Positions 25,568-53,278 are shown, counted from the first letter of the stretch. The stretch is DNA of 64,000 bases from an uncultured delta proteobacterium (GCA_963704165.1 CAVPHD010000012.1:150532-214531); one strand, 5' to 3'. The notes: a model not told the origin generated them from the letters alone. Numbers and translations: made by a program.

Positions 25568-26860
25568 ATGGCGGAGTATCGCTTCATCGACAGGGTCGCA
25601 GAGGTCGAGGAGCTAGCCTCGAAGCTCGCACTGGAGAAGGTCGTCGCCGTCGATACCGAGGCGGACTCCTTCTTCCACTACTTCGACAAGCTCTGCCTGC
25701 TGCAGATCTCCGCGTCGTGCGGGACGTTCCTGATCGACCCGCTGTCGATGCCGCCGCGCGGGCTCGAGCCACTGGCGCCGGTGATGCTGAACCCGGCCAT
25801 CCGCAAGGTGTTTCACGCCGCCGACTACGACCTGTTCGTCCTGAGCCGGCACTGCGGAATCACCGTGCGCGGATTGTTCGACACGATGATCTCGGCGCAG
25901 ATGCTCGGCTATCCCGCCGTCGGTCTCGGCGCCCTGGTCGAACGCCACTTCGGCGTGAAGCTCTCGAAGGACCAGCAGCGCACGGACTGGTCGCTGCGGG
26001 CACTCAAGCCCGCCCAGCTCAATTACGCGGCCTCCGACGTGATCTATCTGATCGAGCTCGCCCAGACGCTCGAGCGCGAGCTCACCGAGAAGAAGCGTCT
26101 CGCGTGGGCGAAGGCGGAGTTCGCGGCGCTCGAGCAGCGCCTGTGGCCCGAGCGCGAGTTCGACATGCAGGGCTACCTGCGCATCAAAGGCGCGCGCAAA
26201 CTCACCCCGCGCGGGATCGCGGTCCTGCGCGAGCTGTACCTGTGGCGCGACAAGCGGGCGCGCGAGCTCGACAAGCCGCCGTTCAAGGTGATGGGAAACG
26301 GGACGCTTCTCGATCTGGCTCAGAGTCCGCCGGGCTCGCGCAGGGCGCTCGGCATGCGCAAGGGAATCTCGGAGCAGGTGCTTCGACGCCAGGGTCAGGA
26401 GCTGCTCGAAGCGATCGAGCGCGGAACGGACGGACCGGAGCACCCGCCGCTCGAGCGCAAGCAGCCGACCGGAGAGGGCCGGCGCCGGCTCGACCGTCGC
26501 GGCGAGTCGCGCCTCGACGAGCTCAAGCTCTGGCGCGCGAAGCGCGCGGGAGAGCTGGGCCTCGATCCCGGTGTGTTCTGCCCGAACGCCTCGCTCGAGG
26601 AGATCGCCGCCGTAGCGCCCAAACGCCCCGAAGAGCTCAGTGGGCTCACGGCCGTCAAGCCCTGGTGGATCGAGCAGTTCGGCCCGGAGGTCCTGAAGAT
26701 CCTCTCCGACTCCGACGCGCCGGCGGCCACCGCCGAGGTCCCGAAGCAGACCCGCGCTCAGGCCGCGCCCGATCCCGAGTCCGGGAGCCCGGAGCAAGTC
26801 CCTCGCAAGCGCTCACGGCGAAGTCGGCGGGGATCTCGCGGGGGGCGGCGGCGGCGCTGA
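25568..26860 (+). CDS. rnd: Ribonuclease D (DEDDy exonuclease with two HRDC domains)
   Basis: AVDTEA, KVFHAADYD, FDT, TDWSLR..QLNYAASDV, WRD..AR..DKPP; Arg-rich tail. Confidence 0.92.
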   Translation: MAEYRFIDRVAEVEELASKLALEKVVAVDTEADSFFHYFDKLCLLQISASCGTFLIDPLSMPPRGLEPLAPVMLNPAIRKVFHAADYDLFVLSRHCGITVRGLFDTMISAQMLGYPAVGLGALVERHFGVKLSKDQQRTDWSLRALKPAQLNYAASDVIYLIELAQTLERELTEKKRLAWAKAEFAALEQRLWPEREFDMQGYLRIKGARKLTPRGIAVLRELYLWRDKRARELDKPPFKVMGNGTLLDLAQSPPGSRRALGMRKGISEQVLRRQGQELLEAIERGTDGPEHPPLERKQPTGEGRRRLDRRGESRLDELKLWRAKRAGELGLDPGVFCPNASLEEIAAVAPKRPEELSGLTAVKPWWIEQFGPEVLKILSDSDAPAATAEVPKQTRAQAAPDPESGSPEQVPRKRSRRSRRGSRGGRRRR

Positions 26861-26973
26861 GGAACGCCCGCCCGGGGCGCTCCCATCCCTTCCCGTCCAT
26901 CGCTGGCGCCTCGAGGCGCGAGCTGTGATCAGCGTCACTCTGTTTCTGCCGGCGCGCGTCGCTGTAGAGGGCC

Positions 26974-27423
26974 GTGGCCGCTCAACACTCCGACACCCCC
27001 GCGTGGCTCTTCTCGTTCGTCGATCTGGCCTTCCTGATTCTGCTCGCCATGACGCAGGTCGGGTCGCTCGACGCCGAGAAGGGGCTCGATCTCGGCGAGC
27101 TGATCGTCCCGAGGGTCGGAGAAAAGGCGCCTGCCGACGCGCTGACCGCGGGCGGCGACGCGACACAGGTACGCGTATACCCGCCGGGTGATGCGCAGCC
27201 CGTCTTCGAGCTCGTCCGGGCCGGAGTGCCGAGCGAACGCATCGGCCGCGAAGCGCTTCGCGAGCGCCTGGTCCGACTGCGTGCGGATTCCACGGAGCGG
27301 CCGATCCTCGCGCCGCACGCGGACTCGCGCAGCGAGGATCTGCTCGCCGCCGTGAGCCTGATCGAAGACGCCTGGCCGAGCGAGCGCCGCGCGATGGTTC
27401 AGCGAGTCGAGCTGTCGCATTGA
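26974..27423 (+). CDS. ExbD/TolR/MotB-like stator subunit
   Basis: Single TM with membrane Asp (WLFSFVDLAFLILL); C-terminal ILAPHAD..EDLLAAVSLI is ExbD-like. Confidence 0.7.
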   Translation: MAAQHSDTPAWLFSFVDLAFLILLAMTQVGSLDAEKGLDLGELIVPRVGEKAPADALTAGGDATQVRVYPPGDAQPVFELVRAGVPSERIGREALRERLVRLRADSTERPILAPHADSRSEDLLAAVSLIEDAWPSERRAMVQRVELSH

Positions 27424-28590
27424 GAGCGGACCCGCTCGCCCGCCGATTCGGTCACGGTGCGTCACATTTCCGTGTCGCCGCGGAGCCGCTCGCGCCGGTG
27501 CCGCCGCTCGCGCCACTGGGCGGAGCGGGGAGCGCCGCAGCGACGGTGGTCGCGAGCGGTCTCATCATCTTCGCCGGTCTGCGTGCGCTCGATTCGAGCG
27601 AAACCGAGCCCGGAGCGCTCCGGATCGTGCCGCTGCATGCGCAGGTCGTCGCGCCGGAGCCGGAACCCGAGCCGGAGCCCGAGCCGGAGCTCATCGCCGA
27701 GCCCGAGCCGCCGCCACCGCCTGCGCCTCGCGAGCCCGCGCCCGCGCCCGAGCCGATTCGCGCCCCCGTCGCGAAGCTCGAGCGGATCGAGCCACGACCC
27801 GCGCCCGCGCCGGTCGCGCGCCGCGTCGCGCCTCCGGTCCGGATCGACCCACCGCGCGCGCCAGCCGAGTCCGTCGAGACCGCGACGCGGACCGCGTGGC
27901 GTCCGCCCTCGGTCGAGCCGAGCGCAAGTCCGCGCGCGAATACACCGCCGCGTGTCGCGATCGACGGCATCTCCGGCCCGGCAGAGCCGGTCGCGGAGAA
28001 CCCGTCGCATGTCCGCAGTCTGCCGCCGGGCGTGCCCGCTCCGCGCCGCGTCGTCGCGCCGACGCTTCCGAGCGTGATGCCGCCTGCGGCCGCCGCGCCG
28101 ACACTTCCCGGTGACGGGCCGATCGCGCGCCTGGCCTCGCGCGCGGCTCCGATCGAGGCGCCCGCCGAACGCGGCGCCACGCGCGGTGCCCGGCCGCAGC
28201 ATGTTTCGTTCGCGGGCGCAGCGAGTCCGTCCGCGGCGACGGCCGCGCACGCTCCGGCTTCGGCCGCGCGCGCGCGCGTCGAGGCCGCACCCATGCCCGC
28301 TTCGGCCCGGCGCTCGGAGCCGGAGTCGAAACTGCGTGGCGTGCCGCTCTCCGCGCTCGAGGCCTGCCGAACCGACCAGCGCGAGGACTCGCTCAAGCTC
28401 GCGGTGATCGCCGCCGTCGGAAACAGACATCGAGTGCTCGAACGCCGCGGGGAGCTACCGGTTCGTCGAGACCAAGAACCTGAACGCGTTTCTGATGTGG
28501 ATCGAGCGCGCGCCGGGCCGCGCAGCGGTGGACCGCTGCGGCGAGCTCGCGCACGCGCTCGGTTGTCTGTCACGACCGGGAGCGATGTGA
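27420..28590 (+). CDS. TonB/TolA-like proline-rich protein with Cys-rich C-terminal domain (1-nt frameshift near 28421-28430)
   Basis: N-terminal hydrophobic segment, EP repeat, long Pro/Ala linker; shifted frame gives IECSNAAGSYRFVETKNLNAFLMWIER..DRCGELAHALGCL with stop at 28590 overlapping the next ATG. Confidence 0.7.
27654..27689 (+). repeat. (Pro-Glu)n coding repeat
   Basis: CCGGAGCCGGAACCCGAGCCGGAGCCCGAGCCGGAG, typical of TonB linkers. Confidence 0.85.
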
Positions 28591-30635
28591 TGAGAATTGG
28601 AGCGAGCCTCGGACTGATGGTCCTGACCTGCGCGATCGCGAACCCGGTCCTGGCCGGAACCGAATCGACGGTGTGGTCGGGCTACCTCGACTACGCGTAC
28701 GTCTACTCGTCCGCCGATGCCCGCGCGCTGCGCGAGCGCTTGCAGGGCTACGGAAACGAGGCGGGTATCTCGCTCGATCGCTACGTCACCGACTACTTCG
28801 AGACGCTGGCGCCGCACGAATCCGGCGACGAAGAGGCGCTGCAGCGCAGAAAGGCCATCGCCTATCTTCTGCTCCACCTCTCGAAGGGCGCGCCCGACGC
28901 GCTCGAAGCGAGCGTCAAGTCGATTCGCCAGCTCTCCAATCGACTCGACCGGCACGAGAACGCCTACTGGTACCACTACATCCTCGCGACGCGCGCGCTC
29001 GAGCGCGGCAACGCCGGAGACTTCGTCCAGGAGATCCTCGACGTCTGGCTGACCGTCGTGCTGCCGCTCGAGGCGACCTACCAGACACTCGACAATCTCT
29101 CGCTCTCCGACGCGCCGAACTCCGGCTTTCTCGCAGCGCTTCCCTACGTGTACGAGAACACCGCGCGCATGATCGTGCTGCGAAGCCAGGAGAAGGGCGT
29201 CGATCGCGACCTCGACCCGCTCGGAACGATCGTGCGGCTGCTCTACGACGGCCGCGTCGGCGCGTATCCCGACGTGATTCCGCCGGCCGCGTCCTCGCGC
29301 GCCTACCTCGAGCGGATCATCGGCCGCATGGACGGACCGGAGTCCGACGTCGGCAGCCTCACCTTCACGCTCGCGCTGCTCGAGGCCAGCAAGCACCACG
29401 AGAACGCGCGCGGTCTTCTGGCGAAGGAGGGCCTCGGTCCCGCGACGCAGCGCGCGCTGCGCACGACCACCGGCGCCTATGAGATCGCCTTCAAGCGGGC
29501 GCGCACCGTCGAGGGACAGTGCGCGGTGTACTCGCGCGTGCTCCGCGAGATCGGCGAGGTCTACGTCGCGAAGCAGCGGCTCGACACCGAGGTCGAGCTC
29601 GACATGCCGTTCAGCATCGAGGGCGCAATCGGGGTCTGGGCGACGCTGCGCGGATCGATGAACGACGACTGGGAGAAACTCGGCTACCAGAACGTGTCGC
29701 GCGAGCAGTATCTCGACTCGATGCGCCGTCTCTGGGAGGAGATCCAGGAGACGAGTCTCAACGTCGCCGACTACTACCTGTGGCGCGCCGTGAAGGAGCC
29801 ACAACGCGCCGACGAGTACGCGCGCGCGGCCGCCCGCGTCTACGGCCGCTACCTGGGATTCTTCCACCAGTACGCGACGGAGGACGGCAAACCCGCGCTT
29901 CCGGATTCAGCCTACTTCGCGGCGTTCGAAGCGTCGAAGGGCGTCGGCAACGCGCTTCTCGCCTATGCGACGCGGCCGACGTCGGCCGAGGTGGTGCTCG
30001 GAACGGAGCGCTATCGCAGCGCGCTCCTGCTCTTCCCGTTCGATCGCGAGCTCTGGCCCGCGATCACTTCGGGACTCGGCCGTCACGGACGCCAGAGCGA
30101 GTACGCCCGGATCGTGCGCCCGATCGCCGAGCACGTCGCGCGCTCGCGCGCGCTCGCGAGCTGGATCGACGGCGGCGAGCCCGAGTGGAAGCGCCTTTCG
30201 GTCCTCCGAACCGCGCTCGCGGACAGCGAGGTGCTGCTCTACATGGGCTTCGCCGAGAGCTCGAGGATTCCCGCGCTCGACGCGGAGCTCGAAGACCTGC
30301 GAGGCAAGCGCGACACGCTCCTGCGCCAGATCGCGGAGCTCGGCGCGCGGCGCGATGCGGTTCGTGCGCTCCCGCTGGAACAGTTCCCCGCTTCGCCCGA
30401 CGCGGGCGCGGACGATCTGGCCGACGTGGCGCAGAAGCTCGCGGACGCGGAAGCACTCCTCGTTCGCACGGAGCAGCAGATCGCTTCGCGTTCGCGTGCG
30501 CTGCCGCTCTTCAAGGCGACGCTCGAGACCGACGGACTCGCGCAGGAGATGCGCGCCCGGCGCGACCACCCGGTGCACGTGCTGCTTCGGCGCATGTACC
30601 ACGAGGGCCGGCCACTGGAGAAGACGAATGACTGA
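28590..30635 (+). CDS. Large exported alpha-helical (TPR-like) protein with C-terminal coiled coil
   Basis: Signal peptide MRIGASLGLMVLTCAIANPVLA; Tyr/Ala/Leu helical pattern; heptads near the C-terminus. Confidence 0.75.
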   Translation: MRIGASLGLMVLTCAIANPVLAGTESTVWSGYLDYAYVYSSADARALRERLQGYGNEAGISLDRYVTDYFETLAPHESGDEEALQRRKAIAYLLLHLSKGAPDALEASVKSIRQLSNRLDRHENAYWYHYILATRALERGNAGDFVQEILDVWLTVVLPLEATYQTLDNLSLSDAPNSGFLAALPYVYENTARMIVLRSQEKGVDRDLDPLGTIVRLLYDGRVGAYPDVIPPAASSRAYLERIIGRMDGPESDVGSLTFTLALLEASKHHENARGLLAKEGLGPATQRALRTTTGAYEIAFKRARTVEGQCAVYSRVLREIGEVYVAKQRLDTEVELDMPFSIEGAIGVWATLRGSMNDDWEKLGYQNVSREQYLDSMRRLWEEIQETSLNVADYYLWRAVKEPQRADEYARAAARVYGRYLGFFHQYATEDGKPALPDSAYFAAFEASKGVGNALLAYATRPTSAEVVLGTERYRSALLLFPFDRELWPAITSGLGRHGRQSEYARIVRPIAEHVARSRALASWIDGGEPEWKRLSVLRTALADSEVLLYMGFAESSRIPALDAELEDLRGKRDTLLRQIAELGARRDAVRALPLEQFPASPDAGADDLADVAQKLADAEALLVRTEQQIASRSRALPLFKATLETDGLAQEMRARRDHPVHVLLRRMYHEGRPLEKTND

Positions 30636-31158
30636 ACGGACGCTTCGCACCTGGGTCGCCGCCATCGCGTGCAGCGCGCTCGCGGCCTGCGCGTCGTCGG
30701 GGAATCGACCCGCGGATTTCGGCAGCACCGAAAAGGCGGCGGAGGAAACCGCGCCGCTCGGCGGCGCGTCGCTCGATGTCCGCCGCGAGACCATGGGGCG
30801 CATGTACGAGGACCTGATGCACTTCCGCACGTCTCTCGATCACGCCGAGCAACGCGGAGACCGCACGACCCAGGTCGCGCTCAACCACTTCGTCGACGCG
30901 TACATCGGGATGCACCTCGACCCGATGCTCGCCGGCGAATGGCAGAGCCGTCACCCGGAGCTCTGGGGCGTCGATGCCGATCTGCGCCTGGCCAAGGCGC
31001 AGGTCCTGAAGCGGATGCGCGAGCGAACCCGCGCGGACGACGTGCTCGAGGAGATCGGCACGCGCTACGCCGGCCGCGAAGACATGCTCGTGCACTATCC
31101 GCCCGGAAGTCAGAGCCCGCTCGGCAAGGCCGTGCAACTGATTCGCGACGGAAACTGA
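30628..31158 (+). CDS. Hypothetical lipoprotein
   Basis: Lipobox LAAC; helical; start overlaps the upstream gene. Confidence 0.75.
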   Translation: MTERTLRTWVAAIACSALAACASSGNRPADFGSTEKAAEETAPLGGASLDVRRETMGRMYEDLMHFRTSLDHAEQRGDRTTQVALNHFVDAYIGMHLDPMLAGEWQSRHPELWGVDADLRLAKAQVLKRMRERTRADDVLEEIGTRYAGREDMLVHYPPGSQSPLGKAVQLIRDGN

Positions 31159-31171
31159 GGAAGGATCCCCG

Positions 31172-31801
31172 ATGGACGGCTCCATGCTCTCGACCCAGGC
31201 CACGATCGTCATCGTCATGAGCGGCCTCTCGCTCGTCGCGATCTGCGTTCCTCTCTATCGAGGTCTCGCGCTGGCCATGCGCGCGTCGAAGGCGACGCGG
31301 TTCGTGCCTCGTCCCGCGCTCGAGAAGAGCCTGCAATTCTCGACGAAGGGCCCCGCCGACTCCATCGCCGTGCTCATGCTTCGCGTGCTCGCCAAGTCGC
31401 TGCGCTCGCCCGACGCCCGTGCGGTGGCGAGCGACTTCGTCGTCGATGCGAGCCGGCAGTTCGTGATGAACGAGTACGAGTCCAGCTACGCGCGGCCGAT
31501 CTCGATGTACTCGAACCTGCTCCCGCCGATCGGTCTGGCCGGAAACGCGATCGGAATGCTGATCCTGCTGGTCTCGAAGCACATGGCCGGCACGCCGCTC
31601 GAGCTCGGCGCGCTCGGACTCGCGCTGTCGTCGACGATCTTCGCGCTGCTCGGCTACGCGCTGCTCGAGGCGATCAAGCTGCGGCTCTACGGCCGGATGC
31701 TGCGCTGCCTCGAAGAGGTCGTCTCGCTGCACCGCATGGCCGAGGAGCGCGCGGAGCGCCCGGCCGCGTCGGGTGCGGCGCCTCTGCCGTCGCCCGCCTG
31801 A
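31172..31801 (+). CDS. Divergent MotA/TolQ/ExbB proton-channel protein
   Basis: Three TM segments; LLPPIGLAGNAIGM and ALSSTIFAL match the PxxGLLGTVxGM / ALxTTxxGL pattern; RBS GAGG/AAGGA. Confidence 0.75.
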   Translation: MDGSMLSTQATIVIVMSGLSLVAICVPLYRGLALAMRASKATRFVPRPALEKSLQFSTKGPADSIAVLMLRVLAKSLRSPDARAVASDFVVDASRQFVMNEYESSYARPISMYSNLLPPIGLAGNAIGMLILLVSKHMAGTPLELGALGLALSSTIFALLGYALLEAIKLRLYGRMLRCLEEVVSLHRMAEERAERPAASGAAPLPSPA

Positions 31802-31807
31802 TCCGGG

Positions 31808-33943
31808 TCAGATTCGCGGCGGCGTGGCGACTTCGAGCCTCGTCGAGAAGCCGCGTTCCCGAAGCAGGACGGTGACCGGACCGAGCTCCGAGATCTGCTC
31901 GAAGCCGATCAAGTAGACGTCGTAGCGATCGCGCTCGTCGCCGCGCCACGGCACGAGCGCGGGTGTTCCCGCGAGGCCGCGGATCTCCTCGACGACGAGA
32001 TCGGCCTCCGCCCGCGTCGCGCGCGTCGCCACGAGCACCGCGTACGGCGCGCTCGTGAGCGAGCCCAGCGGACCGACGCGAAGCAGCTGGCGCTCGAAGG
32101 CGAGGCGGCGCGTCGTCGATTCAGCCCGCTGCTCCTCCGGTGAGTCGATCCGGGTCGCCTGCACCGCGGTGACGAGGCGCCGCGTTCGTGCGACGTCGCG
32201 CGTCGAACGGAAGAACCAGCCCAGGATGGGGATGTCCATCAGATAGGGCACGCCGGTCACCGTGCTCGCGGTCGTGTCGGCGGGCGCCGCGGCCACGAGC
32301 ATCACCGCACCATCGGTCAGCCGCACGTTCGCATCCACGTCGAACTTGCGCAGCGTCGGCCCGCGCTCCTCGCTCGAGGTCTCCGATTCGCTCACGACCG
32401 TCAACGCATCGGCCACGGAGCTCACCGTGACGTGGAGCTCCAACACGATGATGTCTTCGGTGACGACGGTCGGCGTGATCTTCAGATCGACGCCGACGTC
32501 CTGACGCTGGATCGCGACCGAAGTCACGAACGGATCGGTCGAGCTCGTTCCACTCGCGTCGGTGCCGAAGTCCGTCGTGGCCGCGGCGCCGGACGAGACG
32601 GGGATCGGCACCTGATCGCCGCTGAAGATGCGCTGCTCCTCGCCGGCCGCGGCGAGCAGGTACGGACTGGTCAGCGCGCGGATCGAGACGTCGCCCTGCG
32701 CCGCTGTGATCTGCGCGCCGCCGGTCGGCACGACGGCGACGGTGGGTAGACCGTCGGGCCCGATGATCGGAATCACCAGCGGCGTGCGCGTGAATCGCGC
32801 CAGGAAGGGCTGCGCCTCGGGGGGAGCGAGCAGGCTCGCGGCGTCGCCGATCGCGGTGAACGCGATCGTGTCGTTCGGATCCTCGATGTGGACGAGCGGG
32901 AGCAGCGCGTCGAAGCCGAGCTCGACGCCCTTCGCCGTCTCGACGTCCCAGACGTGCACCTCGATCCCGACCCGCGCTGGGATCCGGTCGAGCTCGCCGA
33001 TCACCCGGCTGACCTGCGCGAAGACCGCGGGCGTCGCGCGGATCACGAGCGAGTTCGTCGCGTCGTCGGTGACGATTTCGAGCGCCGAATCCGGTAGACC
33101 GGAGGCGTCGGCGGACTCGAGCTCGAGTCCGCGCAGATGATCCGCGAGCACTTCGGCCTCGGCGTTCACGACGCGGACGACGTGCACGCCGCTCGCCGAG
33201 CGTGTCGGAAGATCGAGCGTCTCGATCAGGGCGCCGACCTCGGCGACGCGCGCGGGGGGACCCTGGACGAGAAGCGAGTTCGTGCGCGAATCGACGACGA
33301 CACGCCAGGGTCGTTCGGGCGCGTTCCCGGAACCGAACGCCTCGTCGAGCTGGCCGGCGAGCGTCTCGGCATCGGCGTAGCGCAGCGGGAAGACCCGCAG
33401 CTCCGTCTTCGAGGCCTTGTCGAGCGATCGCACCACCACGAGCATCGCGGCGAGACGATCTTCGGGAGCGGCGATGATCAGACCGTTCGTCGCCGGATAC
33501 GGCAGCACGATCGCGGCGCGCGTGTCGCGACCGAGGATGTCGGCGATCTCGTCGGGATCGGCCGAGTCGAGCCGGACGAGGGTCGTCACGAGTCGCGCCG
33601 ACTCGCTCGACGCCTCGTCATACAGCCACGGTGCGGCGCCGCGACTGGCCTCGATCGGCAGGATCTTCCAGATGCCGTCGGGACCGGGAGTCGTCGCGTA
33701 CCCGGTCATCAGGAGCGCCGCGTTCAGGACCTCGAGCGCTTCGTCCGCGGTGATCTCGTCTTCGAGGATGATCGTCGCGCGACCGCGGAGATCCCGGTCG
33801 TATACGAAGCGCTGACCGGTCGCGCGCGCGACCGCTTCGACGATCGCCGTGATCTCCGCGTTGCGGAAGTTCAGCACGAGCCCCTGGCCCCGCGCGGAGG
33901 CGGCGAGCAGGATCACGATCGCGAAGCCGGCGAGCGCGCGCAT
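31808..33943 (-). CDS. gspD: GspD-type secretin with C-terminal SPOR-like domain
   Basis: N0 LNFRNAEI..IVEAVA..TG, three Secretin_N repeats (TNGLII, TNSLLV, TNSLVI), DVGVDLKITP, GVPYLMDIPILGWFFRS. Confidence 0.88.
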   Translation of the reverse strand: MRALAGFAIVILLAASARGQGLVLNFRNAEITAIVEAVARATGQRFVYDRDLRGRATIILEDEITADEALEVLNAALLMTGYATTPGPDGIWKILPIEASRGAAPWLYDEASSESARLVTTLVRLDSADPDEIADILGRDTRAAIVLPYPATNGLIIAAPEDRLAAMLVVVRSLDKASKTELRVFPLRYADAETLAGQLDEAFGSGNAPERPWRVVVDSRTNSLLVQGPPARVAEVGALIETLDLPTRSASGVHVVRVVNAEAEVLADHLRGLELESADASGLPDSALEIVTDDATNSLVIRATPAVFAQVSRVIGELDRIPARVGIEVHVWDVETAKGVELGFDALLPLVHIEDPNDTIAFTAIGDAASLLAPPEAQPFLARFTRTPLVIPIIGPDGLPTVAVVPTGGAQITAAQGDVSIRALTSPYLLAAAGEEQRIFSGDQVPIPVSSGAAATTDFGTDASGTSSTDPFVTSVAIQRQDVGVDLKITPTVVTEDIIVLELHVTVSSVADALTVVSESETSSEERGPTLRKFDVDANVRLTDGAVMLVAAAPADTTASTVTGVPYLMDIPILGWFFRSTRDVARTRRLVTAVQATRIDSPEEQRAESTTRRLAFERQLLRVGPLGSLTSAPYAVLVATRATRAEADLVVEEIRGLAGTPALVPWRGDERDRYDVYLIGFEQISELGPVTVLLRERGFSTRLEVATPPRI

Positions 33944-33988: not shown

Positions 33989-35494
33989 TCAGACGATCGG
34001 TGCGAACGCGATCAGGGCATCGAAGGACGCGCCCGAGCCGAGGCCGTGCGTCGGCAGGACCGACCCGAAGCTCCCGACGCGGTCGTGCAGCGCCAGGTAG
34101 TTCAGAACCACCGCCTCGGCGAGCAGCGCGACGTTGTTCGCGACCGCGGTCGATGCGGTCTCGACCGACCCGGAGGGCCGGAAGTAACCGATCTGCTGTG
34201 CCGTCGCGCGCGTCATCGCGGGCCGGCCCGTGGGGCTGTAGACCAGAACCAGGTTCGCGGCGGTGTCCGAGCTGTCGCCCTTCCAGATCCCCTTGCCGCG
34301 CCCGTCGGCGGAGTTGTCGAGCACGCCGTCGCTCGAGAGCGAGCCGTCCGAGAGCACGTAGAGCATGAGCGGCGCCGCGCGCCGCGCGGCGAACTCGAGC
34401 GCCGCTCCCATCATCTGACCGGCCAGGAAGTCGCGGACCTCGCCGGTCGCGCGCGTGCTGTCGTGGTAGTCGTAGCCACCCTGCTCGATCGTGCCCGCGC
34501 CCGCGAAGCCTTCGACGACGAGCTTCATCACCGCCGCGGTCTTCGCGAAGCGGCCCTGATTGAGCTCGGCCGCGGTGAAGATCGGATTGGCGCCGGTGGC
34601 GATGTCGGGATCGACCAGCGGGTTCACCAGATCGGGATTTCCGTAGCGCGCGATCAGGTCGGTCGTCTGGGTGTAGTTGCACAGGATCTGAGACTCGAGC
34701 GCCGGGTCCTCGTTCTCGTGCGCGAGCTTGATCGCGCTGATCTCCTCGGCCGCGCGCGCGACCTGCCCGGCCTGCGTCTGGTTCAAGAGCGACACGAGAT
34801 TTCCGGTGTCGATCAGTCCGGTCGCGTCGCGCGCGGAATCGACCTTGGTCGGACGCTTGGTCGGATCGATCATCGACATCGGCGCTTCCGAGTTTCCGCC
34901 CGAGACCGAGCTCACCGAACCGACGAGCGTGACGAGCTCGCCGTCCGCGCCGGCGCGGTTGATGCCGTACATGGGATTGTGCGGGTTGTTGTCGGTGTCG
35001 TTGTCGGAGCGCGCGCAGAAGATCGTTCCGTTGACGTTCGCACGCGTTGCAGCCGAGGTCTTCGACAGGATGCCGCGCAGGAACGCGCTGTCGGAGTGGA
35101 ACGCGATGCCGAGCTCGGTGTTCACCTGACCCGCGTTGCCCGGCGTCATGTCCGAGGGCAGGCCGAGCTTCGAGTAGCCTTCGCCGGTGAGGAGATCGAG
35201 CTGACCGCCGGGTCCACCGACGAGAACGTTCGAACCGGCGATGCTCGCGCCTCCGGCGAGATCGATGCACAGGAACGGAATCAGCCCCGCGCCCGCGCGC
35301 AGCACGCAGCCCGCGCCCTGAGCGCGCGCGGTCGAGGCGCGAAGCAGCGAGAGCAGCGTCGGCGCCATGACCAGGCCCGCGCCCGAGAGCAGCCCGCGCG
35401 CGAGGAAGTCGCGGCGCGTGACCGGACGCCGGTGGTCCTCGAGCCGGAGCGGCGCGTCCGCAGGGTGGGTGTGTCTTCGCTTCATCTCGCTCAC
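33989..35494 (-). CDS. Tat-exported uncharacterised protein (DUF1501-like)
   Basis: Twin-arginine TRRDFL leader; IDLAGGA, GGYDYHD, SDGS motifs. Confidence 0.75.
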   Translation of the reverse strand: MSEMKRRHTHPADAPLRLEDHRRPVTRRDFLARGLLSGAGLVMAPTLLSLLRASTARAQGAGCVLRAGAGLIPFLCIDLAGGASIAGSNVLVGGPGGQLDLLTGEGYSKLGLPSDMTPGNAGQVNTELGIAFHSDSAFLRGILSKTSAATRANVNGTIFCARSDNDTDNNPHNPMYGINRAGADGELVTLVGSVSSVSGGNSEAPMSMIDPTKRPTKVDSARDATGLIDTGNLVSLLNQTQAGQVARAAEEISAIKLAHENEDPALESQILCNYTQTTDLIARYGNPDLVNPLVDPDIATGANPIFTAAELNQGRFAKTAAVMKLVVEGFAGAGTIEQGGYDYHDSTRATGEVRDFLAGQMMGAALEFAARRAAPLMLYVLSDGSLSSDGVLDNSADGRGKGIWKGDSSDTAANLVLVYSPTGRPAMTRATAQQIGYFRPSGSVETASTAVANNVALLAEAVVLNYLALHDRVGSFGSVLPTHGLGSGASFDALIAFAPIV

Positions 35495-35504
35495 CTCTTC
35501 CGTG

Positions 35505-37670
35505 CTAGTGCAGCTGCACCGCGGCGCTCGATAGCACCGCTGCGCAGACGCCCTTCACGACGTTTCGCGTGTGGCTCGCCGGGCACGACGCCGCGCTGCA
35601 CCCCGCCGTCAGCTGGTCGATCAACGTGTCGAGGTGCGAGCGCACCTCGGACGCGGCCGGCTGGTTCGCGAGCGACGTCCCGAGCATTTGCGTCGAGATG
35701 GGAGCGATCACGGAATCCCGTTGCGCCGTCGTCGAGAACGCGGTCGTGGCGGGCAGGGTCCAGTCGAAGCCCGCGCCGAAGAACGCGGTCCGCAGGGTCG
35801 TGTTCTCGATCATCTGATCGCAGTAGTCGAGCGCGAGCCGCGAGATGCCGACCTGGTGCGCAGAGACGAAGGCCTCGACGTCGCTGTCGCCCGGCAGCGC
35901 CTGCTGCAGCTCGATCCAGGTCGCGCGCACGATCGCATTGGTCGCGGGAACACCCGTGATCTCGGACATCGAGTCGTTGATCTGCGAGAAGTCGCGGATG
36001 CCGATGCCGGCCGACGGCAGGACCACGCCCGGCGTGGGCGGCGGAGATCCCGGCAGATCGACCATCGGGCTCGAGAAGTCGCCGATCGCGTCGAAGAAGA
36101 CGTGGAAGACGTCGAGATCGACGCCGAGATCCTTCGGCACGACCTGACACTGCTCGGAAAGCCGCGTGCTCGTCTGCGTGATCGCGGTGTCGAGCAGGCG
36201 GAAGCTCTGGCTCGCGACCGGCGCCACGCCGTTCACCGAGATGCGGATCGTCTGCACGCTGAAGCCCGTCCGCCCGCCGGAGTTCAACACCGGTGCGCAG
36301 AACAGGTAGCTGTAGGCGTCGAACTCGCTGACCGTGAACTCGACCCAGGCGTCCGGCGCGAGCGCATCGTCGAGCCCGAAGCGCAGCGTGTAGCGCTGGT
36401 TCGCACCGGCGAGGAAGTTCTGCGTGATCTGCTCCTGCGTGAGGATGTCCTCGTAGATGGCGACGAGCTTCACGATTCCGTGCCACGCGCGGTTGTTGCT
36501 CGTCTCGTTTCCGACCGCGAACGTGTACCCCGGGTCCCAGCTCACGAGCAGGGCGGGTGCGACCTCGTCCACGTCGTCGGTGAAGACGCCATCGACGAAG
36601 ATGCGCCGACCGCGCGTCTGGTCGTAGGTGAGCACCACGTGCTGCAGCATCGCCTGCAGGTCCTCGTCGGCGTCGGCCGTGACGAGCGCGGGTTCGCCGT
36701 TCGTGCTGACCAAGGGGTTCACGCTGCGATTGCGGTAGACGTAGTTGTACATGACCTGGCCGAGCATGAAGTTGCGCGCGCCGGTTCCGCTCGAGTACGA
36801 GAGGATGCGCGCGGGACCTTCCTGCGTCGTGTTCGCCGGGATCAGCCAGCTCTCGATCGAGTACTGCTGCATTCCGCTGCCGCTCGCGAGCTCGTTGTAG
36901 AGCTTGCGGCTGTCGGTCGCGTTCGAGCTCGCCTTGCCGCCGGTGAACTCGAGACCGCCGCCGGAAACCCAGCCGACGTCGCCCGAGAGCGCCAGGTTCA
37001 TCGTCGGGCCGACGCGGCTCGTGTCGAGCGCGACCGATCCCGAGCCTTCCGCGAACTTCCAGAGCGCGATCGGGTTGCCCTCGTAGCGCCCGCTCTCGGC
37101 GCGGACCGCGGAGAGGAACGTCCGCCCGTCGCTCGCGATGATCGTCGGCGGGATCTCCGTTCCCGGATCGTTCGGATCGGGATTCGCGACGACGACCGCG
37201 TCGGCCCAGAGCTGGATCGCGGCCTGCATCGCGTCGGCGTCGGAGTCGCAGTTGTTCCAGCAGAAGTGGCGATCCGTGCGCAGGCGCTCGACCAGACGCG
37301 AGCGCGAGGGATCGAGCAGGTTCACCTTCTGGTTGTCGATCACCGCGCGAAACGCCGTCTCGCCGTCGGGATGCGAGATGTGCGGGAAGCCCGGACCCGA
37401 ACCGACGTGACACTGCACGCAGTACTGCCGCGTCAGCGGATGGACGTTGGCTTCGAAGGCCGCCTGCCCGATCGCGCCGCCGCCCGCGGGCACGCCGACA
37501 CCCACACCGCCGCCACCGGCGCCGGTATTCGACGGCACGTTCGTCGGCGCGGAGCCGATGTCGCGGCCGCCTTCGCCCTCGCCGCCGCCACCCCCGCCGC
37601 CACCACAGCCCGAGGCCGCGACGAGGACCGAGAGCGACAGCGCAATCGTGTAAGTCCGGCTCGTGCTCAT
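35505..37670 (-). CDS. Lipoprotein with c-type heme motif and LamG-like jellyroll domain
   Basis: Lipobox ASGC with Gly linker; CVQCH; LamG motifs ALWKFAEGSG, YSIESW, HVVLTYD, IFVDG, WHGIVKLVAIY; Cys-rich C-terminus. Confidence 0.82.
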   Translation of the reverse strand: MSTSRTYTIALSLSVLVAASGCGGGGGGGGEGEGGRDIGSAPTNVPSNTGAGGGGVGVGVPAGGGAIGQAAFEANVHPLTRQYCVQCHVGSGPGFPHISHPDGETAFRAVIDNQKVNLLDPSRSRLVERLRTDRHFCWNNCDSDADAMQAAIQLWADAVVVANPDPNDPGTEIPPTIIASDGRTFLSAVRAESGRYEGNPIALWKFAEGSGSVALDTSRVGPTMNLALSGDVGWVSGGGLEFTGGKASSNATDSRKLYNELASGSGMQQYSIESWLIPANTTQEGPARILSYSSGTGARNFMLGQVMYNYVYRNRSVNPLVSTNGEPALVTADADEDLQAMLQHVVLTYDQTRGRRIFVDGVFTDDVDEVAPALLVSWDPGYTFAVGNETSNNRAWHGIVKLVAIYEDILTQEQITQNFLAGANQRYTLRFGLDDALAPDAWVEFTVSEFDAYSYLFCAPVLNSGGRTGFSVQTIRISVNGVAPVASQSFRLLDTAITQTSTRLSEQCQVVPKDLGVDLDVFHVFFDAIGDFSSPMVDLPGSPPPTPGVVLPSAGIGIRDFSQINDSMSEITGVPATNAIVRATWIELQQALPGDSDVEAFVSAHQVGISRLALDYCDQMIENTTLRTAFFGAGFDWTLPATTAFSTTAQRDSVIAPISTQMLGTSLANQPAASEVRSHLDTLIDQLTAGCSAASCPASHTRNVVKGVCAAVLSSAAVQLH

Positions 37671-37673
37671 CGC

Positions 37674-38858
37674 CTAGTTCCCCATGCAGTGCGCGGCGGT
37701 TTCCGCGAAGACGCGCTTCATGCTGTGGTTCTCGGTCTCGAAGACGTCCGCGATCGTCTGCACCGCGAGCCGGTCCTCGGCGGATTCCGGCACACGCAGG
37801 CAGACGCGCCGGAAGACCTTCTCGACCTGGCACTCCGAGAACGCGCGGGTCGAGGCCACTTCCACGCCGAGGCTCTTGGGTCCGTTGCCCGAAGCGGACG
37901 GACCCTCCCAACCCAGCGACGAGTTCGGCCCGACACGCCAGGGGTTCAGCCAGCGGTCGTCGACGGTGACGTAGCCGCCGGGGAACGTGTTCGCGTTGAT
38001 CAGATGCTTGGGCGCAACGCTTCCGCGCGTGAAGACGACGCGCCCGAGCGCCTCGTCCCACTCGAAGAAGGCGAACGCGCCGGCGAGCGGGTCCATGCCC
38101 GCGTGACAGCCGACGCAGGTGTTGTGGAAGATCCGGCTGTCGCCGCCCGGACTGCGGCTGATGTCCTGTCGGATTCGATCCGCCGGGCGCGTGATGTCGT
38201 TCAGCTGTTCGAGGTCGCGGCACAGGAAGTTCATCGCGGTGAAGCGCAACATCCGGCGGTTCGTGCCCGCGGAGAAGAACGCTTCTCCGGCGGCGCGCGT
38301 CGTCAGCACACCCGCCGTGTCTCCCGTCGCGATCGAAGCGCCGGGCAACGTGGACTGCGGCCGCTGCACGAGCACCGCCGGATTCGAGAGATCCGCGCGC
38401 GCCTGCTCGAGCTGTTGGTAGTGCAGATTGTCGGTCTGGGAGTAAGCCGCTCCGACCACCCCCGGCGCGCCGACATAGACCATGTCGGCCCAGAGAACCT
38501 GGTCGAACGGCACGTCGTCCCGGATCATGCCGATCACCGTCGCCGAGTAATCGTTCAAATCGGCGAAGACGGTCTGTGAGACGTTGGTCCAGGGCGTGAC
38601 GAAGTTCTTCAGCGCCGAGACGTAGAAGATCGGGTTGTCCATCGCGGTGTAGGCCGCGGTGAGCGGATCGCCGCCGTCGATCGACACCTGCATCGACGTC
38701 AGCACGGCCTCGGACGGCGGCACGCCGACGAGGCGATCGTGCATGCGTTTCGCCTGCTCGCGCGAGCCCGCGTTCGCGTCCCCGGGCCAGGCTCCCAGCA
38801 GCACGAGCCACAGAGCCGCCAGGAGTGGCGTTCCGATCGGAGTCCGAAGCCAGCTCAT
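37674..38858 (-). CDS. Exported c-type heme protein (DUF1585/DUF1588-like)
   Basis: Signal peptide (DANA); GVLTTRA, GTNRR, CVGCHAGMD, FSECQVEKVF..C. Confidence 0.78.
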   Translation of the reverse strand: MSWLRTPIGTPLLAALWLVLLGAWPGDANAGSREQAKRMHDRLVGVPPSEAVLTSMQVSIDGGDPLTAAYTAMDNPIFYVSALKNFVTPWTNVSQTVFADLNDYSATVIGMIRDDVPFDQVLWADMVYVGAPGVVGAAYSQTDNLHYQQLEQARADLSNPAVLVQRPQSTLPGASIATGDTAGVLTTRAAGEAFFSAGTNRRMLRFTAMNFLCRDLEQLNDITRPADRIRQDISRSPGGDSRIFHNTCVGCHAGMDPLAGAFAFFEWDEALGRVVFTRGSVAPKHLINANTFPGGYVTVDDRWLNPWRVGPNSSLGWEGPSASGNGPKSLGVEVASTRAFSECQVEKVFRRVCLRVPESAEDRLAVQTIADVFETENHSMKRVFAETAAHCMGN

Positions 38859-39012
38859 CCGCGCTCCTCGACGCCCCTCGCCGATATCACCTCTTCGGTG
38901 AGATCCCCTGTCGCACAGCGTGAGCCGGCGCACGGTCGCGAACTCGTCTGCGCGTTCGCAGGTGAAGGCCGGCCGATGTGCACGAGTTGCGCATTCGCGA
39001 TGTCCCAGTCGG

Positions 39013-39028
39013 TGTGCGTTGAGTCACA
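39013..39028. promoter_or_regulatory. CRP/FNR-family-like operator in the divergent promoter region
   Basis: TGTGC-GTTGAG-TCACA, 9/10 match to TGTGA-N6-TCACA. Confidence 0.4.
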
Positions 39029-39090
39029 TCGCGCCGCGCGCGCCGGTCGATGAGGTGCGGGGACTCGAGGGGACGAAGGAAGTGCGGAGC

Positions 39091-39600
39091 ATGGTGACGT
39101 TCGGATTCGTCGTCGCTGCGATCGGAGCTGCTTGCGTGTCGCTCGCTTCGGGACCGGCGCGCGCCGCGGACGAGGGCGAGCTCGCGCCCGTGTTCTCGGC
39201 GAAGTCCCTCGACGGCGAAAGCACGATCTCGCTCGGCGCCTACCGGGGCAAGGTCGTGTATCTCGACTTCTGGGCGTCGTGGTGCGCTCCGTGTCGGACG
39301 GCGCTGCCCGCGATCGAGAAGCTGCGCACGGAGTTCCCGGCGCAGGACTTCCAGGTCATCGCGGTGAACGTCGACACCGACGTCGAGAAAGCGCTGCGGC
39401 TGATGGCGGAGCACAAGATCGGCTACCCGAGCGCGGCGGATCCCGACGGCGTGCTGCCCGAGACCTTCGGCCTCAAGACCATGCCGACCTCCTACCTGAT
39501 CGACCGCGCGGGCGTGGTGCGGCTGGTGCACCCGGGCTTCCGATCGAGCGACGTCGAGAAACTGCGCGCCCAGATCAAGACGCTCGTGGAGGCGAAGTGA
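39091..39600 (+). CDS. TlpA-family thiol-disulfide oxidoreductase
   Basis: Signal peptide; GKVVYLDFWASWCAPC; MPTSYLIDR. Confidence 0.95.
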   Translation: MVTFGFVVAAIGAACVSLASGPARAADEGELAPVFSAKSLDGESTISLGAYRGKVVYLDFWASWCAPCRTALPAIEKLRTEFPAQDFQVIAVNVDTDVEKALRLMAEHKIGYPSAADPDGVLPETFGLKTMPTSYLIDRAGVVRLVHPGFRSSDVEKLRAQIKTLVEAK

Positions 39601-39905
39601 TGAAACGGATCGCGGTCTGTCTGGCGGCGCTCGCGATGTCGGGCTGCGGGACCTTCCTGTGGCCGAGCGACGATCTGCCGGACTTCGAGGCGTACAGCGA
39701 GCATCCGCGGAGCTATCTCGAGATCTGTCTCGAACACGACTTCCTGGTGCGCGTGAAGCCGTGGGAGCGCGCCGTGCTCTCGCGCGACGACATGGCCTGG
39801 GTGCCGGATCCGCTCGAGGGATCGCGAAGGCGGCACACGTTCTTCAGCAAAGAGGCGTCGTTGCCCGGCGGTGGCGCGGCCGGTGGAGGCTGCGGGTGCA
39901 ACTGA
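39600..39905 (+). CDS. DUF4266-family lipoprotein
   Basis: Lipobox MSGC; VKPWER, FSKEA, C-terminal GGGCGCN. Confidence 0.9.
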   Translation: MKRIAVCLAALAMSGCGTFLWPSDDLPDFEAYSEHPRSYLEICLEHDFLVRVKPWERAVLSRDDMAWVPDPLEGSRRRHTFFSKEASLPGGGAAGGGCGCN

Positions 39906-41134
39906 AACGGGCGACGAAGACGGGAAGGGAGTCCGCGACCTTGCGCGCGCTCCAGGCGAGCGCGCTCGCGCTCTCGGGCATGGCGCGCGTCGCCGCGGGT
40001 GACGCGCCGATCGACCAGGTCTACAGCTCGTACAGCTTCTCGAGCTACGACGAGGACGAGCTCGAGGCGTCGAAGGGCTTGCCGCTCGCGGATGGCGAGC
40101 GCTACTCCGTCTCGACCCATCAGGCGATGCTCGCCGCGCCACTCACCGAACGCATCGACTTCTCGCTCGAAGTCACGCACGAGACGATGAGCGGCGCGAG
40201 CCCCTGGTACACGGTTCCCGACGCGGGTGGAGCGCCGATCCAGGTCATGAGCGGCGCGACGATCGAGGATTCGCGCGACGACTTCCTCCTGCAGGCGAAC
40301 TACTTCTACGAGAACGCGCGGATCGGGCTCTCGAGCGGCTACTCGGGCGAGAACGACTACACCGCGATCAACTTCGGTTTCAACGGCGAGACGCACTTCA
40401 ACGAGAAGAACACCACGCTCTCCGGCGGATTCGGCGTGTCTCTCGACGAGATCGATCCGACCGACGCCGACCTGTACGCGACGCGGCCGAGTCACGAGTC
40501 GAAGCAGACCTATTCGCTGAACGTCGGGCTCTCGCAGATCCTGAACCGCCGCTCGATCGTCCAGTCGAATGTCTCCTACGCGTTCGGCACCGGCTACCTC
40601 TCGGATCCGTACAAGCAGGTCTTCGCCGTCGGCGGCGTGTTCTTCTCGGACGAGCGCCCCGACGCGCGCCACGGGCTCTCGTGGCTGACGCGGTATCGCC
40701 GGCACATCGAGGAATTCGAGGCGACGGTGCACCTTGGGTACCAGTACTACTTCGACACCTGGGGAGTCAGCTCGCACACGATCGAGGCCAGCTGGTACCA
40801 GTCGTTCGGCGACAACCTGCAGATCACGCCGACCGTCCGCTACTACACGCAAGAAGAAGCGGACATGTACGTGAACTACCTTCCGCTCGGCGCGACGGGC
40901 GGCGGCGAGTACTCGAGCGACTACCGGCTCTCGAGCTACGGCGCGCTCGGTCTCGGCCTCTCGGGCGAGTACACGCTGCGCACGCGCTGGGTCGCCGACA
41001 TCGAGTGGAAGCTCAAGCTCTCGTACGAGCGCTATCTCTCGAGCGCCGACCTCGCCTTCAACGGCCCGTCGGTGGAAGCTCCCGGGCTCGTGAGCTTCGA
41101 CGTTTTCTCGATCGGGATCCGCGCGGCGTTCTGA
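39896..41134 (+). CDS. DUF3570-family outer-membrane beta-barrel with two flavinylation motifs
   Basis: ETMSGAS and QVMSGAT motifs; ENDY, GYLSDPYK, ERPDAR, DTWG..SHT, SSDYRLS; terminal Phe. Confidence 0.88.
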   Translation: MQLKRATKTGRESATLRALQASALALSGMARVAAGDAPIDQVYSSYSFSSYDEDELEASKGLPLADGERYSVSTHQAMLAAPLTERIDFSLEVTHETMSGASPWYTVPDAGGAPIQVMSGATIEDSRDDFLLQANYFYENARIGLSSGYSGENDYTAINFGFNGETHFNEKNTTLSGGFGVSLDEIDPTDADLYATRPSHESKQTYSLNVGLSQILNRRSIVQSNVSYAFGTGYLSDPYKQVFAVGGVFFSDERPDARHGLSWLTRYRRHIEEFEATVHLGYQYYFDTWGVSSHTIEASWYQSFGDNLQITPTVRYYTQEEADMYVNYLPLGATGGGEYSSDYRLSSYGALGLGLSGEYTLRTRWVADIEWKLKLSYERYLSSADLAFNGPSVEAPGLVSFDVFSIGIRAAF

Positions 41135-41139
41135 CCGAC

Positions 41140-42057
41140 ATGCTGCGCGCGCGTCACCCGTTCCGTGCGATGGGCTCGCCGTGCGAGCTGCACCAGTACG
41201 GCGCTTCCCAGCGCACGTGCGATGCGCTCGCCGAGCGCGCGATCGGCGAGGTGCGCCGCCTCGAAGCGAAGTACTCGCGCTACCGCGACGACAGTGTGAC
41301 CTCCGCGATCAATCGCGCCGCCGGTAATCCCGCCGGAGTCGACGTCGACGACGAGACCGCGGCGCTTCTCGACTACGCCGCAACCGCGTTCCGCTCGAGC
41401 GACGGGCTCTTCGATCCCACGTCGGGCGTGCTCCGCCGCGTCTGGAACTTCAAATCCGCCCGCGTGCCCACGCGCGCCGAGATCGACGCCGTCCTGCCGC
41501 TCGTCGGCTGGCAGCGCCTGTCGTGGCAGCGCCCGCGCCTGGTCCTGCCGCGCGCCGGCATGGAGCTCGACTTCGGCGGCTTCGTGAAGGAGTACGCCGC
41601 CGACCGCGTCGCCGCGCTCTGCCGCGAGCACGGCCTGCGACACGGAATGGTGGACCTCGGCGGCGACCTCGCCGTGATCGGCCCGCACCCCGACGGCTCC
41701 CCCTGGATCGTCGGCATCCGCGACCCGCGCGCACCGAAGCACGCGATGGCGAGCGTCCGCCTTCCCGCCGGCGCCATCGCGACGAGCGGCGACTACGAAC
41801 GCTGCATGGTCGTCGACGGCGTCCGCTACACGCACGTCCTCGACCCGCGCACCGGCACGCCCGTCACCGGCCTGCGCAGCGTCAGCGTCGTCGCCGACGA
41901 ATGCCTGATCGCCGGCACCGCCACCACCGTCGCCATGCTCAAGGGCACCGACGGCGGCCCCCTCTGGCTCGACGACCTCGGCCTGCCCAACCTGCGCATG
42001 GACGACGCGGGCGAATTGAGCGGGACACTCGCGAACGCGGAGCGCGACGCAGCGTAG
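41140..42057 (+). CDS. apbE: FAD:protein FMN transferase (ApbE family)
   Basis: FRAMGS, SRYR.DS, FDPT, LDFGGFVKEYAAD, IATSGDYER, HVLDPRTG. Confidence 0.95.
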   Translation: MLRARHPFRAMGSPCELHQYGASQRTCDALAERAIGEVRRLEAKYSRYRDDSVTSAINRAAGNPAGVDVDDETAALLDYAATAFRSSDGLFDPTSGVLRRVWNFKSARVPTRAEIDAVLPLVGWQRLSWQRPRLVLPRAGMELDFGGFVKEYAADRVAALCREHGLRHGMVDLGGDLAVIGPHPDGSPWIVGIRDPRAPKHAMASVRLPAGAIATSGDYERCMVVDGVRYTHVLDPRTGTPVTGLRSVSVVADECLIAGTATTVAMLKGTDGGPLWLDDLGLPNLRMDDAGELSGTLANAERDAA

Positions 42058-45670: not shown

Positions 45671-45804
45671 GCCGAACAAGCCGCCGCAGCTGACGGGGCC
45701 ACAGCGCGCTCCAATCAACCTTGGGTAGAGTTCGGCATTGAACTCGTGTGCTTCGAGCGGCCGCTGGCGGCGGGCCCGGCAGCTGAGCGCTGTATCCGTT
45801 GGAC
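45671..45804 (+). repeat. attC site, 134 bp
   Basis: GCCGAAC...GCAGCTGA...CAGCTGAGCG...GTTGGAC. Confidence 0.88.
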
Positions 45805-45831
45805 TGCCCGCGGCGGTACCATTCACGTGCC

Positions 45832-53143: not shown

Positions 53144-53278
53144 CCAAGAGAGCTTCGGCGTCCGAGCGACCCGGGGCCGTGATCCGCGACCACGCAGCGC
53201 GCACGCAACTCGCGCGCGGAGGTGCCCGAGCGGCGTGTGATTGGTACCCTCGCGCCCGTTCCTCCCGGGGGAGTTTCT

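Follow-up and report, generated by a model that had tools for sequence, protein, structure and literature searches.

Which envelope machine is encoded by five genes that join stator-like subunits to an unfamiliar transducer, and what load does it move? The question is raised by an operon at positions 26974..31801 of a 64,000-nt stretch, one strand, from an uncultured delta proteobacterium (the whole stretch is called the window, and positions are counted from its start). Proton-driven 5:2 motors are known to drive flagella and gliding, the constriction of the outer membrane, and the uptake of nutrients, all via a small set of transducer tips. The operon appears to be an undescribed variant of the Ton/Tol/Agl motor class, and its target is proposed here from co-inheritance. 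The best explanation for the whole, which we regard as having about an even chance of being right, is a proton-driven Ton/Tol-type motor whose tip acts on an exported helical protein and whose end target is a haem–flavin module around DUF3570.

The five genes are co-oriented between 26974 and 31801 and have overlapping or near-touching ends, which agrees with an earlier description of the locus as tightly coupled. Conservation across genomes had been suggested as a check. A search of relatives with the helical protein matched 22 of 41, and a contig scan with the same protein gave 95 confirmed matches, from which 79 loci were kept as the operon set. The order exbD-like, transducer, helical protein, lipoprotein, exbB-like is complete in 52 of these loci. 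With D, T, H, Lp, and B standing for the ExbD-like protein, the transducer, the 681-aa helical protein, the lipoprotein, and the ExbB-like protein, the other 27 comprise 13 T-H-Lp-B, five T-H-Lp, three D-T-H, two H-Lp-B, and four smaller sets, most of which are explained by contig ends. Within 26700-32000, no sigma-70 promoter was found, and no terminator rose above chance. None of the five window proteins has a meaningful Pfam or NCBIfam match, and no paper describing the operon was found in a search that did not extend to subscription papers and supplements.

The helical protein was matched in 37 of 401 genomes of the phylum; 35 of these belong to the window's class, and the two outside it are weak, partial matches. 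The ExbD-like protein was matched in 25 of 301 genomes, every one in that class. Myxococcota and Deltaproteobacteria are the names given in record titles of the operon loci. In the helical-protein tree these loci are mixed with rows titled Spirochaetales or Proteobacteria, and for that reason we take the latter titles to be mislabels. As judged by these scans, the operon is restricted to one class of uncultured Myxococcota, the window's own, which may be UBA9160.

The two stator-like proteins can be compared with known families. The motif WLFSFVDL, which had been singled out in the ExbD-like protein, lies by hydropathy in its single hydrophobic helix, and Asp17 is invariant in all 56 orthologues. 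Pfam ExbD is weakly matched by 4 of 19 orthologues (best E 0.0021) and MotS by 7 of 56 (best E 0.011). Among the Atlas neighbours of this protein, 23 of 30 fall in ExbD clusters at 0.90, and no other named family is present. In the window's ExbB-like protein, the GLAGN motif that had been reported, with Asn where the conserved channel Thr lies, is located in the second of three hydrophobic helices. According to one study, ExbB and TolQ have conserved pore threonines (10.1101/2024.10.08.617233). Of 68 orthologues, 57 have Thr at the pore position and 11 have Asn, so Asn is a lineage trait and not a family-wide one; a family-wide change of ion selectivity is ruled out by the same count. P119, G121, G124, and G128 are invariant, and every one of the 68 has Ser or Thr at third-helix site 155. 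PF01618 is matched by 10 of 20 orthologues (best E 2.6e-6), and a deep profile of the family matches solved TolQ across helices 2-3 (E 0.01). On these profiles, the two genes encode divergent relatives of ExbB and ExbD, within the MotA/TolQ/ExbB stator superfamily, and the operon very probably has motor architecture.

The transducer had been described as Pro-rich and ending in a four-Cys domain. This is true of its relatives, in which the domain is intact, but not of the window copy, whose frame is broken. The window frame contains only the first Cys, has no stop, and reads on into the helical protein to give a single 1071-aa open reading frame (ORF). The three remaining Cys lie in the +1 frame, and comparison with an intact orthologue points to a single surplus base at window 28428-28431. 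All 20 loci of the first set, and 75 of 79 in the larger set, encode the complete domain in a single frame. Its four Cys are invariant in 75 of 75 transducer orthologues, and a [FYW][GA]xG motif is found at the N-terminus in 55 of 55, a count that partly reflects how the search was built. A transducer–helical protein fusion was considered for the 1071-aa ORF and ruled out, as the two are separate genes in 20 of 20 loci.

An assembly error is the likely source of the frameshift, because 15 of 145 comparisons with orthologues in the window's genome (two genes counted twice) show a frame change, which marks the assembly as indel-rich. If instead the operon were decaying in this genome, the frameshift at 28428-28431 would be genuine and the Asn at the site of the conserved Thr would mark a dead channel. 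Both features are present, but about one gene in 10 shows a frame change in this assembly, the Asn is shared across the window's clade (10 of 10 rows), in which the operons are otherwise intact, and the four remaining genes are unbroken, with 76-87% identity to the three closest relatives. Decay is therefore considered highly improbable.

The tip of an orthologous transducer, ∼85 residues, is predicted to fold as alpha-beta-beta-beta-alpha (pLDDT 83). Foldseek gave no match at E < 0.001, and the best result of a structural search of 48,161 chains had a Z of 3.8 and a root-mean-square deviation (rmsd) of 3.6 over 73 aligned positions. TonB_C and TolA-III are not among the top rows of these fold searches, although absence from such a list excludes neither. 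No TonB_C, TolA, or Glt family match was found in 75 members, and no PDB sequence match was found. The family is closed, with 236 clusters among 1.84 billion representatives. A likeness to DUF4276 (Atlas 0.89, low recognition) and matches to HVO_B0008_C in 10 of 75 members (best E 0.0098) are leads only. Among the families and solved folds searched, the tip appears to belong to none, and the operon would thus add to the set used by such motors a transducer tip of no known family or fold.

What might this tip grip? The 681-aa protein had been called exported and helical, and its model is indeed all-helical (pLDDT 87), with a hydrophobic signal at the N-terminus. Its profile contains a TPR-like stretch and a coiled coil. 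Foldseek returned generic TPR proteins only (TM < 0.2), and the best match of a second fold search was to a designed repeat (Z 13.5, rmsd 3.7, 213 aligned). The lipoprotein assignment holds as well, with a lipobox Cys in 72 of 73 orthologues; TPR_19 is matched in 5 of the 73 (best E 0.0018), and none has an OmpA/Pal family match.

Modelling of the Cys domain against the two exported proteins had been proposed as a check. The model was built from three chains: the helical protein, the lipoprotein, and the tip of a relative's transducer. The tip was placed on the helical protein with a score of 0.83 (the best of three controls scored 0.00) and made no confident contact with the lipoprotein. The score mark used is reached by 116 of 157 solved complexes and by 2 of 215 mismatched pairs. 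Runs agree in at least 95% of contacts, and the tip has a pLDDT of 86. Confident contacts are all to the helical protein, around residues 271-279, 318-330, 383-391, and 653-660, and the tip contributes its 47-58 hairpin. By hand count, 15 of 29 interface residues of the helical protein are at least 90% conserved, compared with 164 of 681 overall. When the helical protein was swapped out, the tip and lipoprotein scored 0.00. No like complex was found in the PDB, which makes memory an unlikely cause of the score. These models support the prediction that the tip binds the helical protein, through an interface that is conserved, defined, and testable with two small purified proteins. The sequence-only reading of the window had proposed an undescribed machine whose load is the helical protein and lipoprotein together. 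A motor with a non-TonB tip and the helical protein as its predicted immediate load survive from that proposal, whereas contact of the lipoprotein with the tip does not.

Five loci carry the transducer, helical protein, and lipoprotein genes without an ExbD-like or ExbB-like gene. Stator profiles matched neither subunit in any of the five genomes, whose completeness is not given; the ExbD-like profile found 25 genomes elsewhere. Each stator-less genome keeps 4-14 ordinary MotA/ExbB matches. In the tree, the five loci group as a single clade (support 99-100) that falls within stator-bearing lineages, and the stator-less state is derived. In the three of these loci that hold the transducer start, the N-terminus is altered and the membrane helix has a His, in one case as SxxxH. 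The latter is given as the motor-binding motif of TonB and TolA (10.1101/2024.10.08.617233). SxxxH is also present in transducers P0339, P0350, and P0356, and a central His or SxxxH is confined to stator-less forms. Stator loss with gain of His is the pattern that would be expected of a motor-coupled transducer. In this natural swap, the arm can apparently re-plug into ordinary ExbBD/TolQR.

Table 1. Genes of the motor operon and of the linked region in the window.
Feature	Position	Strand	Remarks
ExbD/TolR-like stator subunit	26974..27423	+	149 aa, one hydrophobic helix (12-30), Asp17
TonB/TolA-like transducer	27420..28590 (end approximate)	+	Frameshifted in assembly at about 28428-28431; N-terminal [FYW][GA]xG motif, hydrophobic helix 36-54, Pro-rich spacer, C-terminal four-Cys domain
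Exported all-helical protein	28590..30635	+	681 aa, TPR-like solenoid and coiled-coil hairpin ∼557-645
Lipoprotein	30628..31158	+	176 aa, Cys21, weak TPR-like signal
ExbB/TolQ/MotA-like stator subunit	31172..31801	+	209 aa, three hydrophobic helices, PPxGxxG[T/N]xxG motif
Orphan GspD-like secretin	31808..33943	-	C-terminal extension; linked neighbour
Co-inherited trio	33989..38933	-	Tat-signal protein (501 aa); LamG protein, one CxxCH; DUF1585/1588-like protein, one CxxCH
Flavinylation module	39019..42057	+	TlpA-like thioredoxin, DUF4266-type small protein, DUF3570, ApbE

The linked region (Table 1) holds the candidate for the end target. Across the 79 loci, the genes that recur nearby encode the secretin (23, within ∼8 kb), the LamG protein (22), the CxxCH protein (21), the Tat protein (20), a small beta-barrel (14), DUF3570 (11), ApbE (10), and a DsbD-domain protein (10). 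On long contigs, motor and haem–flavin cluster form one supercluster in several families. Co-occurrence with the helical protein was tabulated across 131 genomes of the window's class, in the order both, helical protein only, partner only, and neither; the counts are descriptive, related genomes being non-independent. They are 56/3/3/69 for DUF3570 (phi 0.91), 56/3/9/63 for the Tat protein, and 50/9/19/53 for the secretin orthologue (phi 0.58). The helical protein is present in 55 of the 56 genomes that have both DUF3570 and the Tat protein. The haem–flavin module is proposed as the motor's target because it is co-inherited with the operon, and we hold the chances for and against this assignment to be roughly balanced.

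DUF3570 is reported to be an ApbE-flavinylated protein of the DsbD–thioredoxin–DUF4266 system, with an uncertain function (PMC8238504). The window's DUF3570 has two [ST]GA[ST] motifs and a terminal Phe, and from the latter it is presumably a barrel. The DUF4266 label reflects position and a CxC tail (the protein ends CGCN), with no family hit behind it. These genes bear on the earlier statement that the operon has no receptor. The window indeed contains no TonB-dependent receptor; PF00593 has three matches in the window's genome, all on other contigs, and none among the recurring neighbours of the operon. That statement does not, however, take account of the barrel-type DUF3570 gene that lies 8 kb away and is inherited with the operon. 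No paper pairing DUF3570 with ExbB was found, although Supplementary file 1 of PMC8238504, outside the search, may list motor genes beside DUF3570. The Tat protein has no plasmid match.

The operon had also been said to converge on a secretin gene, and 7 bp separate the two stop codons. A motor of the kind described could have this orphan secretin as its load, either gating it or assisting its assembly. The secretin lies within ∼8 kb in 23 of 79 loci, an orthologue is found in 50 of the 59 genomes with the helical protein, the gene stays beside the stator-less transducer–helical protein–lipoprotein genes in L061, L079, and L090, and the window has an orphan gspC-like gene. Nevertheless, the secretin occurs without the operon in 19 genomes and the operon without the secretin in nine (of which some, such as G285, are fragmented or fall short of the score cut-off), the motor is missing from G435 and G318 although they retain the secretin locus, and the orientation of the secretin relative to the operon varies. 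As a linked partner, the secretin is weaker than DUF3570 (phi 0.58 versus 0.91). We consider a secretin load unlikely.

A general envelope role would leave the operon merely sharing the island of the redox cluster, with Tol-like outer-membrane tethering in which the helical protein and lipoprotein are the analogue of TolB and Pal. The gene set parallels tolQ-tolR-tolA-tolB-pal in kind, there are paralogous operon copies away from the cluster, and the cluster has no adjacent motor in most loci outside the class. However, a complete canonical tol-pal locus is present elsewhere in the genome, 72 of the 131 class genomes lack the operon, and OmpA/Pal family matches are absent from the 73 lipoproteins. 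This role is judged decidedly unlikely.

For a motor directed at the haem–flavin module, the following mechanism can be drawn. By analogy with Ton and Tol, the ExbB-like and ExbD-like proteins would form a 5:2 stator that carries protons via Asp17, the transducer helix would dock on this stator, and the Pro-rich spacer would cross the periplasm. The tip, probably disulfide-linked, is predicted to grip the helical protein by inserting an ETKNxN hairpin into a conserved groove. Most tentatively, the lipoprotein might hold the helical protein near the outer membrane, and the helical protein might pass force to the DUF3570/DUF4266 barrel and plug, or help to assemble or load the module. The helical protein would then have the role taken in known systems by the plug of a TonB-dependent receptor or by TolB-Pal.

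Several points weigh against this explanation. Neither stator protein of the window itself has a Pfam or NCBIfam match, and a 19-sequence ExbD-like profile finds no solved ExbD or TolR. The third-helix Pro is present in 0 of 68 members of the ExbB-like family, and 55 stator-linked transducers have no central His in the helix, with five having a His at the helix edge only. Without this Pro and this His, the known Ton/Tol coupling is absent, and a private coupling is therefore assumed. Stator loss with His gain counts as one evolutionary event. The complex job, with three chains, their own alignments, and a relative's tip, differs from the calibration of the tool. Concerning the target, Tat genes were surveyed in 80 metagenome loci, 44 of which have at least 2.5 kb of downstream sequence. 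An Agl-Glt-core-like operon follows in 11 of the 80 and a window-type operon in 3 of the 80; none has both, and most have neither motor nearby. Paralogous copies of the operon occur in other contexts, and in G440 the motor and cluster are separated by 640 kb. A shared island might be all that lies behind the co-inheritance, and related genomes are non-independent.

Other arrangements of these genes were observed. A divergent second paralogue of the whole operon lies beside glyoxalase and diadenylate-cyclase genes (L107, L110-L115, L117, L118), and many genomes of genus g27 hold both copies. In genus g2 (L030, L066, L068), the operon is directly downstream of a canonical-type gspD, in place of the orphan secretin. 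L097 and L108 have helical-protein genes (in L097 the lipoprotein gene too) without upstream ExbD-like or transducer genes, though an 8-kb flank is present. A PF13505 small outer-membrane beta-barrel gene sits between secretin and operon in 14 loci (e.g., L078:752-1672) and was not found in the window's genome. The tail of the orphan secretin (31808-32130, - strand) is a conserved ∼75-residue domain, and the genome's canonical GspD has a similar tail; the domain looks SPOR-like, with no family hit behind the label. In L130, L132, and L148, the Tat/LamG/CxxCH trio occurs without the motor, and the LamG protein is 1700-1800 aa versus about 720. Further along the window, at 50644-54469 (- strand), a 1013-aa DsbD-like gene is followed by an orphan gspC-like gene (NF041515, E 1.3e-27), separate from the main type II secretion locus, which is on C9; this gene pair recurs in L145, L198, and L200. 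Codon use is atypical at ∼42-50 kb, a region that parts ApbE from the gspC/dsbD pair; an ORF at 45799-46746 (+ strand) resembles an HNH endonuclease, judged by eye.

The Agl-Glt-core-like operon found beside the same cluster encodes a GltG-like protein with an AgmX/PglI tail (E 9e-18), together with a TolQ-like protein and TPR proteins; its GltC, D, F and AglQ, S labels were assigned by size and order. As an unrelated motor that follows the same Tat gene, it counts in favour of the haem–flavin target. It matches the Agl-Glt core (aglRQS, gltC, D, E, G), which is described as having an unknown function (Luciano et al. 2011, PMC3169522). It is conceivable, though doubtful, that an undescribed motor family powers the flavinylated barrel/haem module, that the Agl-Glt ancestral core does likewise beside the same module in other phyla, and that two unrelated load arms were recruited independently. 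If true, the flavinylated barrel/haem module would be the long-unknown load of a machine ancestral to myxobacterial gliding. Co-inheritance with DUF3570 is a testable lead on the role of the DUF3570 system and on that of the ancestral Agl-Glt core in non-gliding bacteria. In another lineage, the cluster adds a 911-aa protein with a weak hydrazine synthase alpha match (L227:1432-4164, - strand, E 3.4e-10) and two small barrels.

The operon could also be a heavily eroded descendant of the Agl-Glt core, driving surface transport or gliding, with the helical protein as GltC/D, the lipoprotein as GltE, and the transducer as GltG. The kinds of parts are the same, and the core-like operon takes the neighbouring position in other bacteria. 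The best hhalign match of the stator is to an AglR-like group (probability 54%, E 1.3e-4), and the helical protein shows a nonsignificant resemblance to a GltD-like C-terminus (E 0.02). In contrast, hhalign probabilities are <3% against GltC-like and GltD-like proteins (shallow templates, 3-6 rows); the tip reaches 0.4% against GltG-like proteins, and the lipoprotein aligns with GltE-like proteins over the lipobox only, both again with shallow templates. No gliding-family match was found in 21 helical proteins or 75 tips. There is one ExbD-like gene instead of two, the gene order differs, and the core alone is considered unlikely to drive motility (Luciano et al., PMC3169522). Such descent is very unlikely in our estimate. 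The profile comparison with Agl-Glt, which had been called for, thus gave no homology of tip, helical protein, or lipoprotein, and a superfamily-level likeness of the ExbB-like protein, with shallow templates. NF033768 and NF033760, which represent the AgmX/PglI C-terminal domain, match a control protein and 0 of 75 tips. The GltE family was matched in 0 of 131 class genomes, although no positive control was matched either. Agl-Glt-core queries found no match in the window's genome at E 1e-5, a weak test in which the AglR-like query also missed TolQ. As had been supposed, the motor does not correspond end to end to Ton, Tol, or Agl-Glt, since it fails the defining tests of each (TonB_C profile, SHLS, TolB/Pal, AgmX/PglI tail).

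The window's genome has separate tol-pal (C7), exbBD-like, pomA-like, type II secretion, MSHA-like, and type IV pilus loci, as well as three TonB-dependent receptors, and the operon can be set against such systems. Unlike flagellar MotAB/PomAB, it has a 149-aa ExbD-like protein with no OmpA match and an ExbB-like protein with three hydrophobic helices, where MotA has four. With Ton it shares a three-helix ExbB-like protein with a PxxGxxGT-type motif, a single-helix ExbD-like protein with an invariant Asp, and a single-helix Pro-rich transducer. It differs in that TonB_C is not matched, the stator-linked transducer has no SHLS, the ExbB-like subunit lacks a third-helix Pro, the locus is without a receptor gene, and two additional exported helical proteins are encoded. 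With Tol-Pal it has in common a stator, a transducer, a soluble exported protein, and a lipoprotein in one operon, and among solved proteins the ExbB-like profile matches TolQ best. However, its exported protein is predicted to be an alpha-solenoid, whereas TolB is a beta-propeller, and its lipoprotein has no OmpA/Pal match. The earlier claim that tolB and pal are missing is consistent with the all-alpha helical protein, with the lack of OmpA/Pal matches, and with the canonical tol-pal genes at another locus.

The neighbouring module corresponds to the DsbD–thioredoxin–DUF4266–DUF3570–ApbE clusters (Meheust et al. 2021, PMC8238504), for which the available text mentions no motor link. The Agl-Glt core (Luciano et al. 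2011, PMC3169522) likewise has a single operon that encodes exported TPR-like proteins along with a stator and a Pro-rich transducer, but the operon's tip, helical protein, and lipoprotein have no detectable homology to it, one ExbD-like gene stands in place of aglQ and aglS, and the gene order differs. Finally, force transducers with vWA tips are TolA/TonB-like three-part proteins with a non-TonB tip, and are described as lying beside TPR and motor genes, with function unknown (PMC12204202). The tip of the operon's transducer is a ∼85-residue four-Cys alpha/beta domain with no vWA family match, and SHLS is absent except in the stator-less clade. Nonetheless, as transducers with non-TonB tips, the vWA proteins set a precedent (PMC12204202) for a motor of the kind proposed here.

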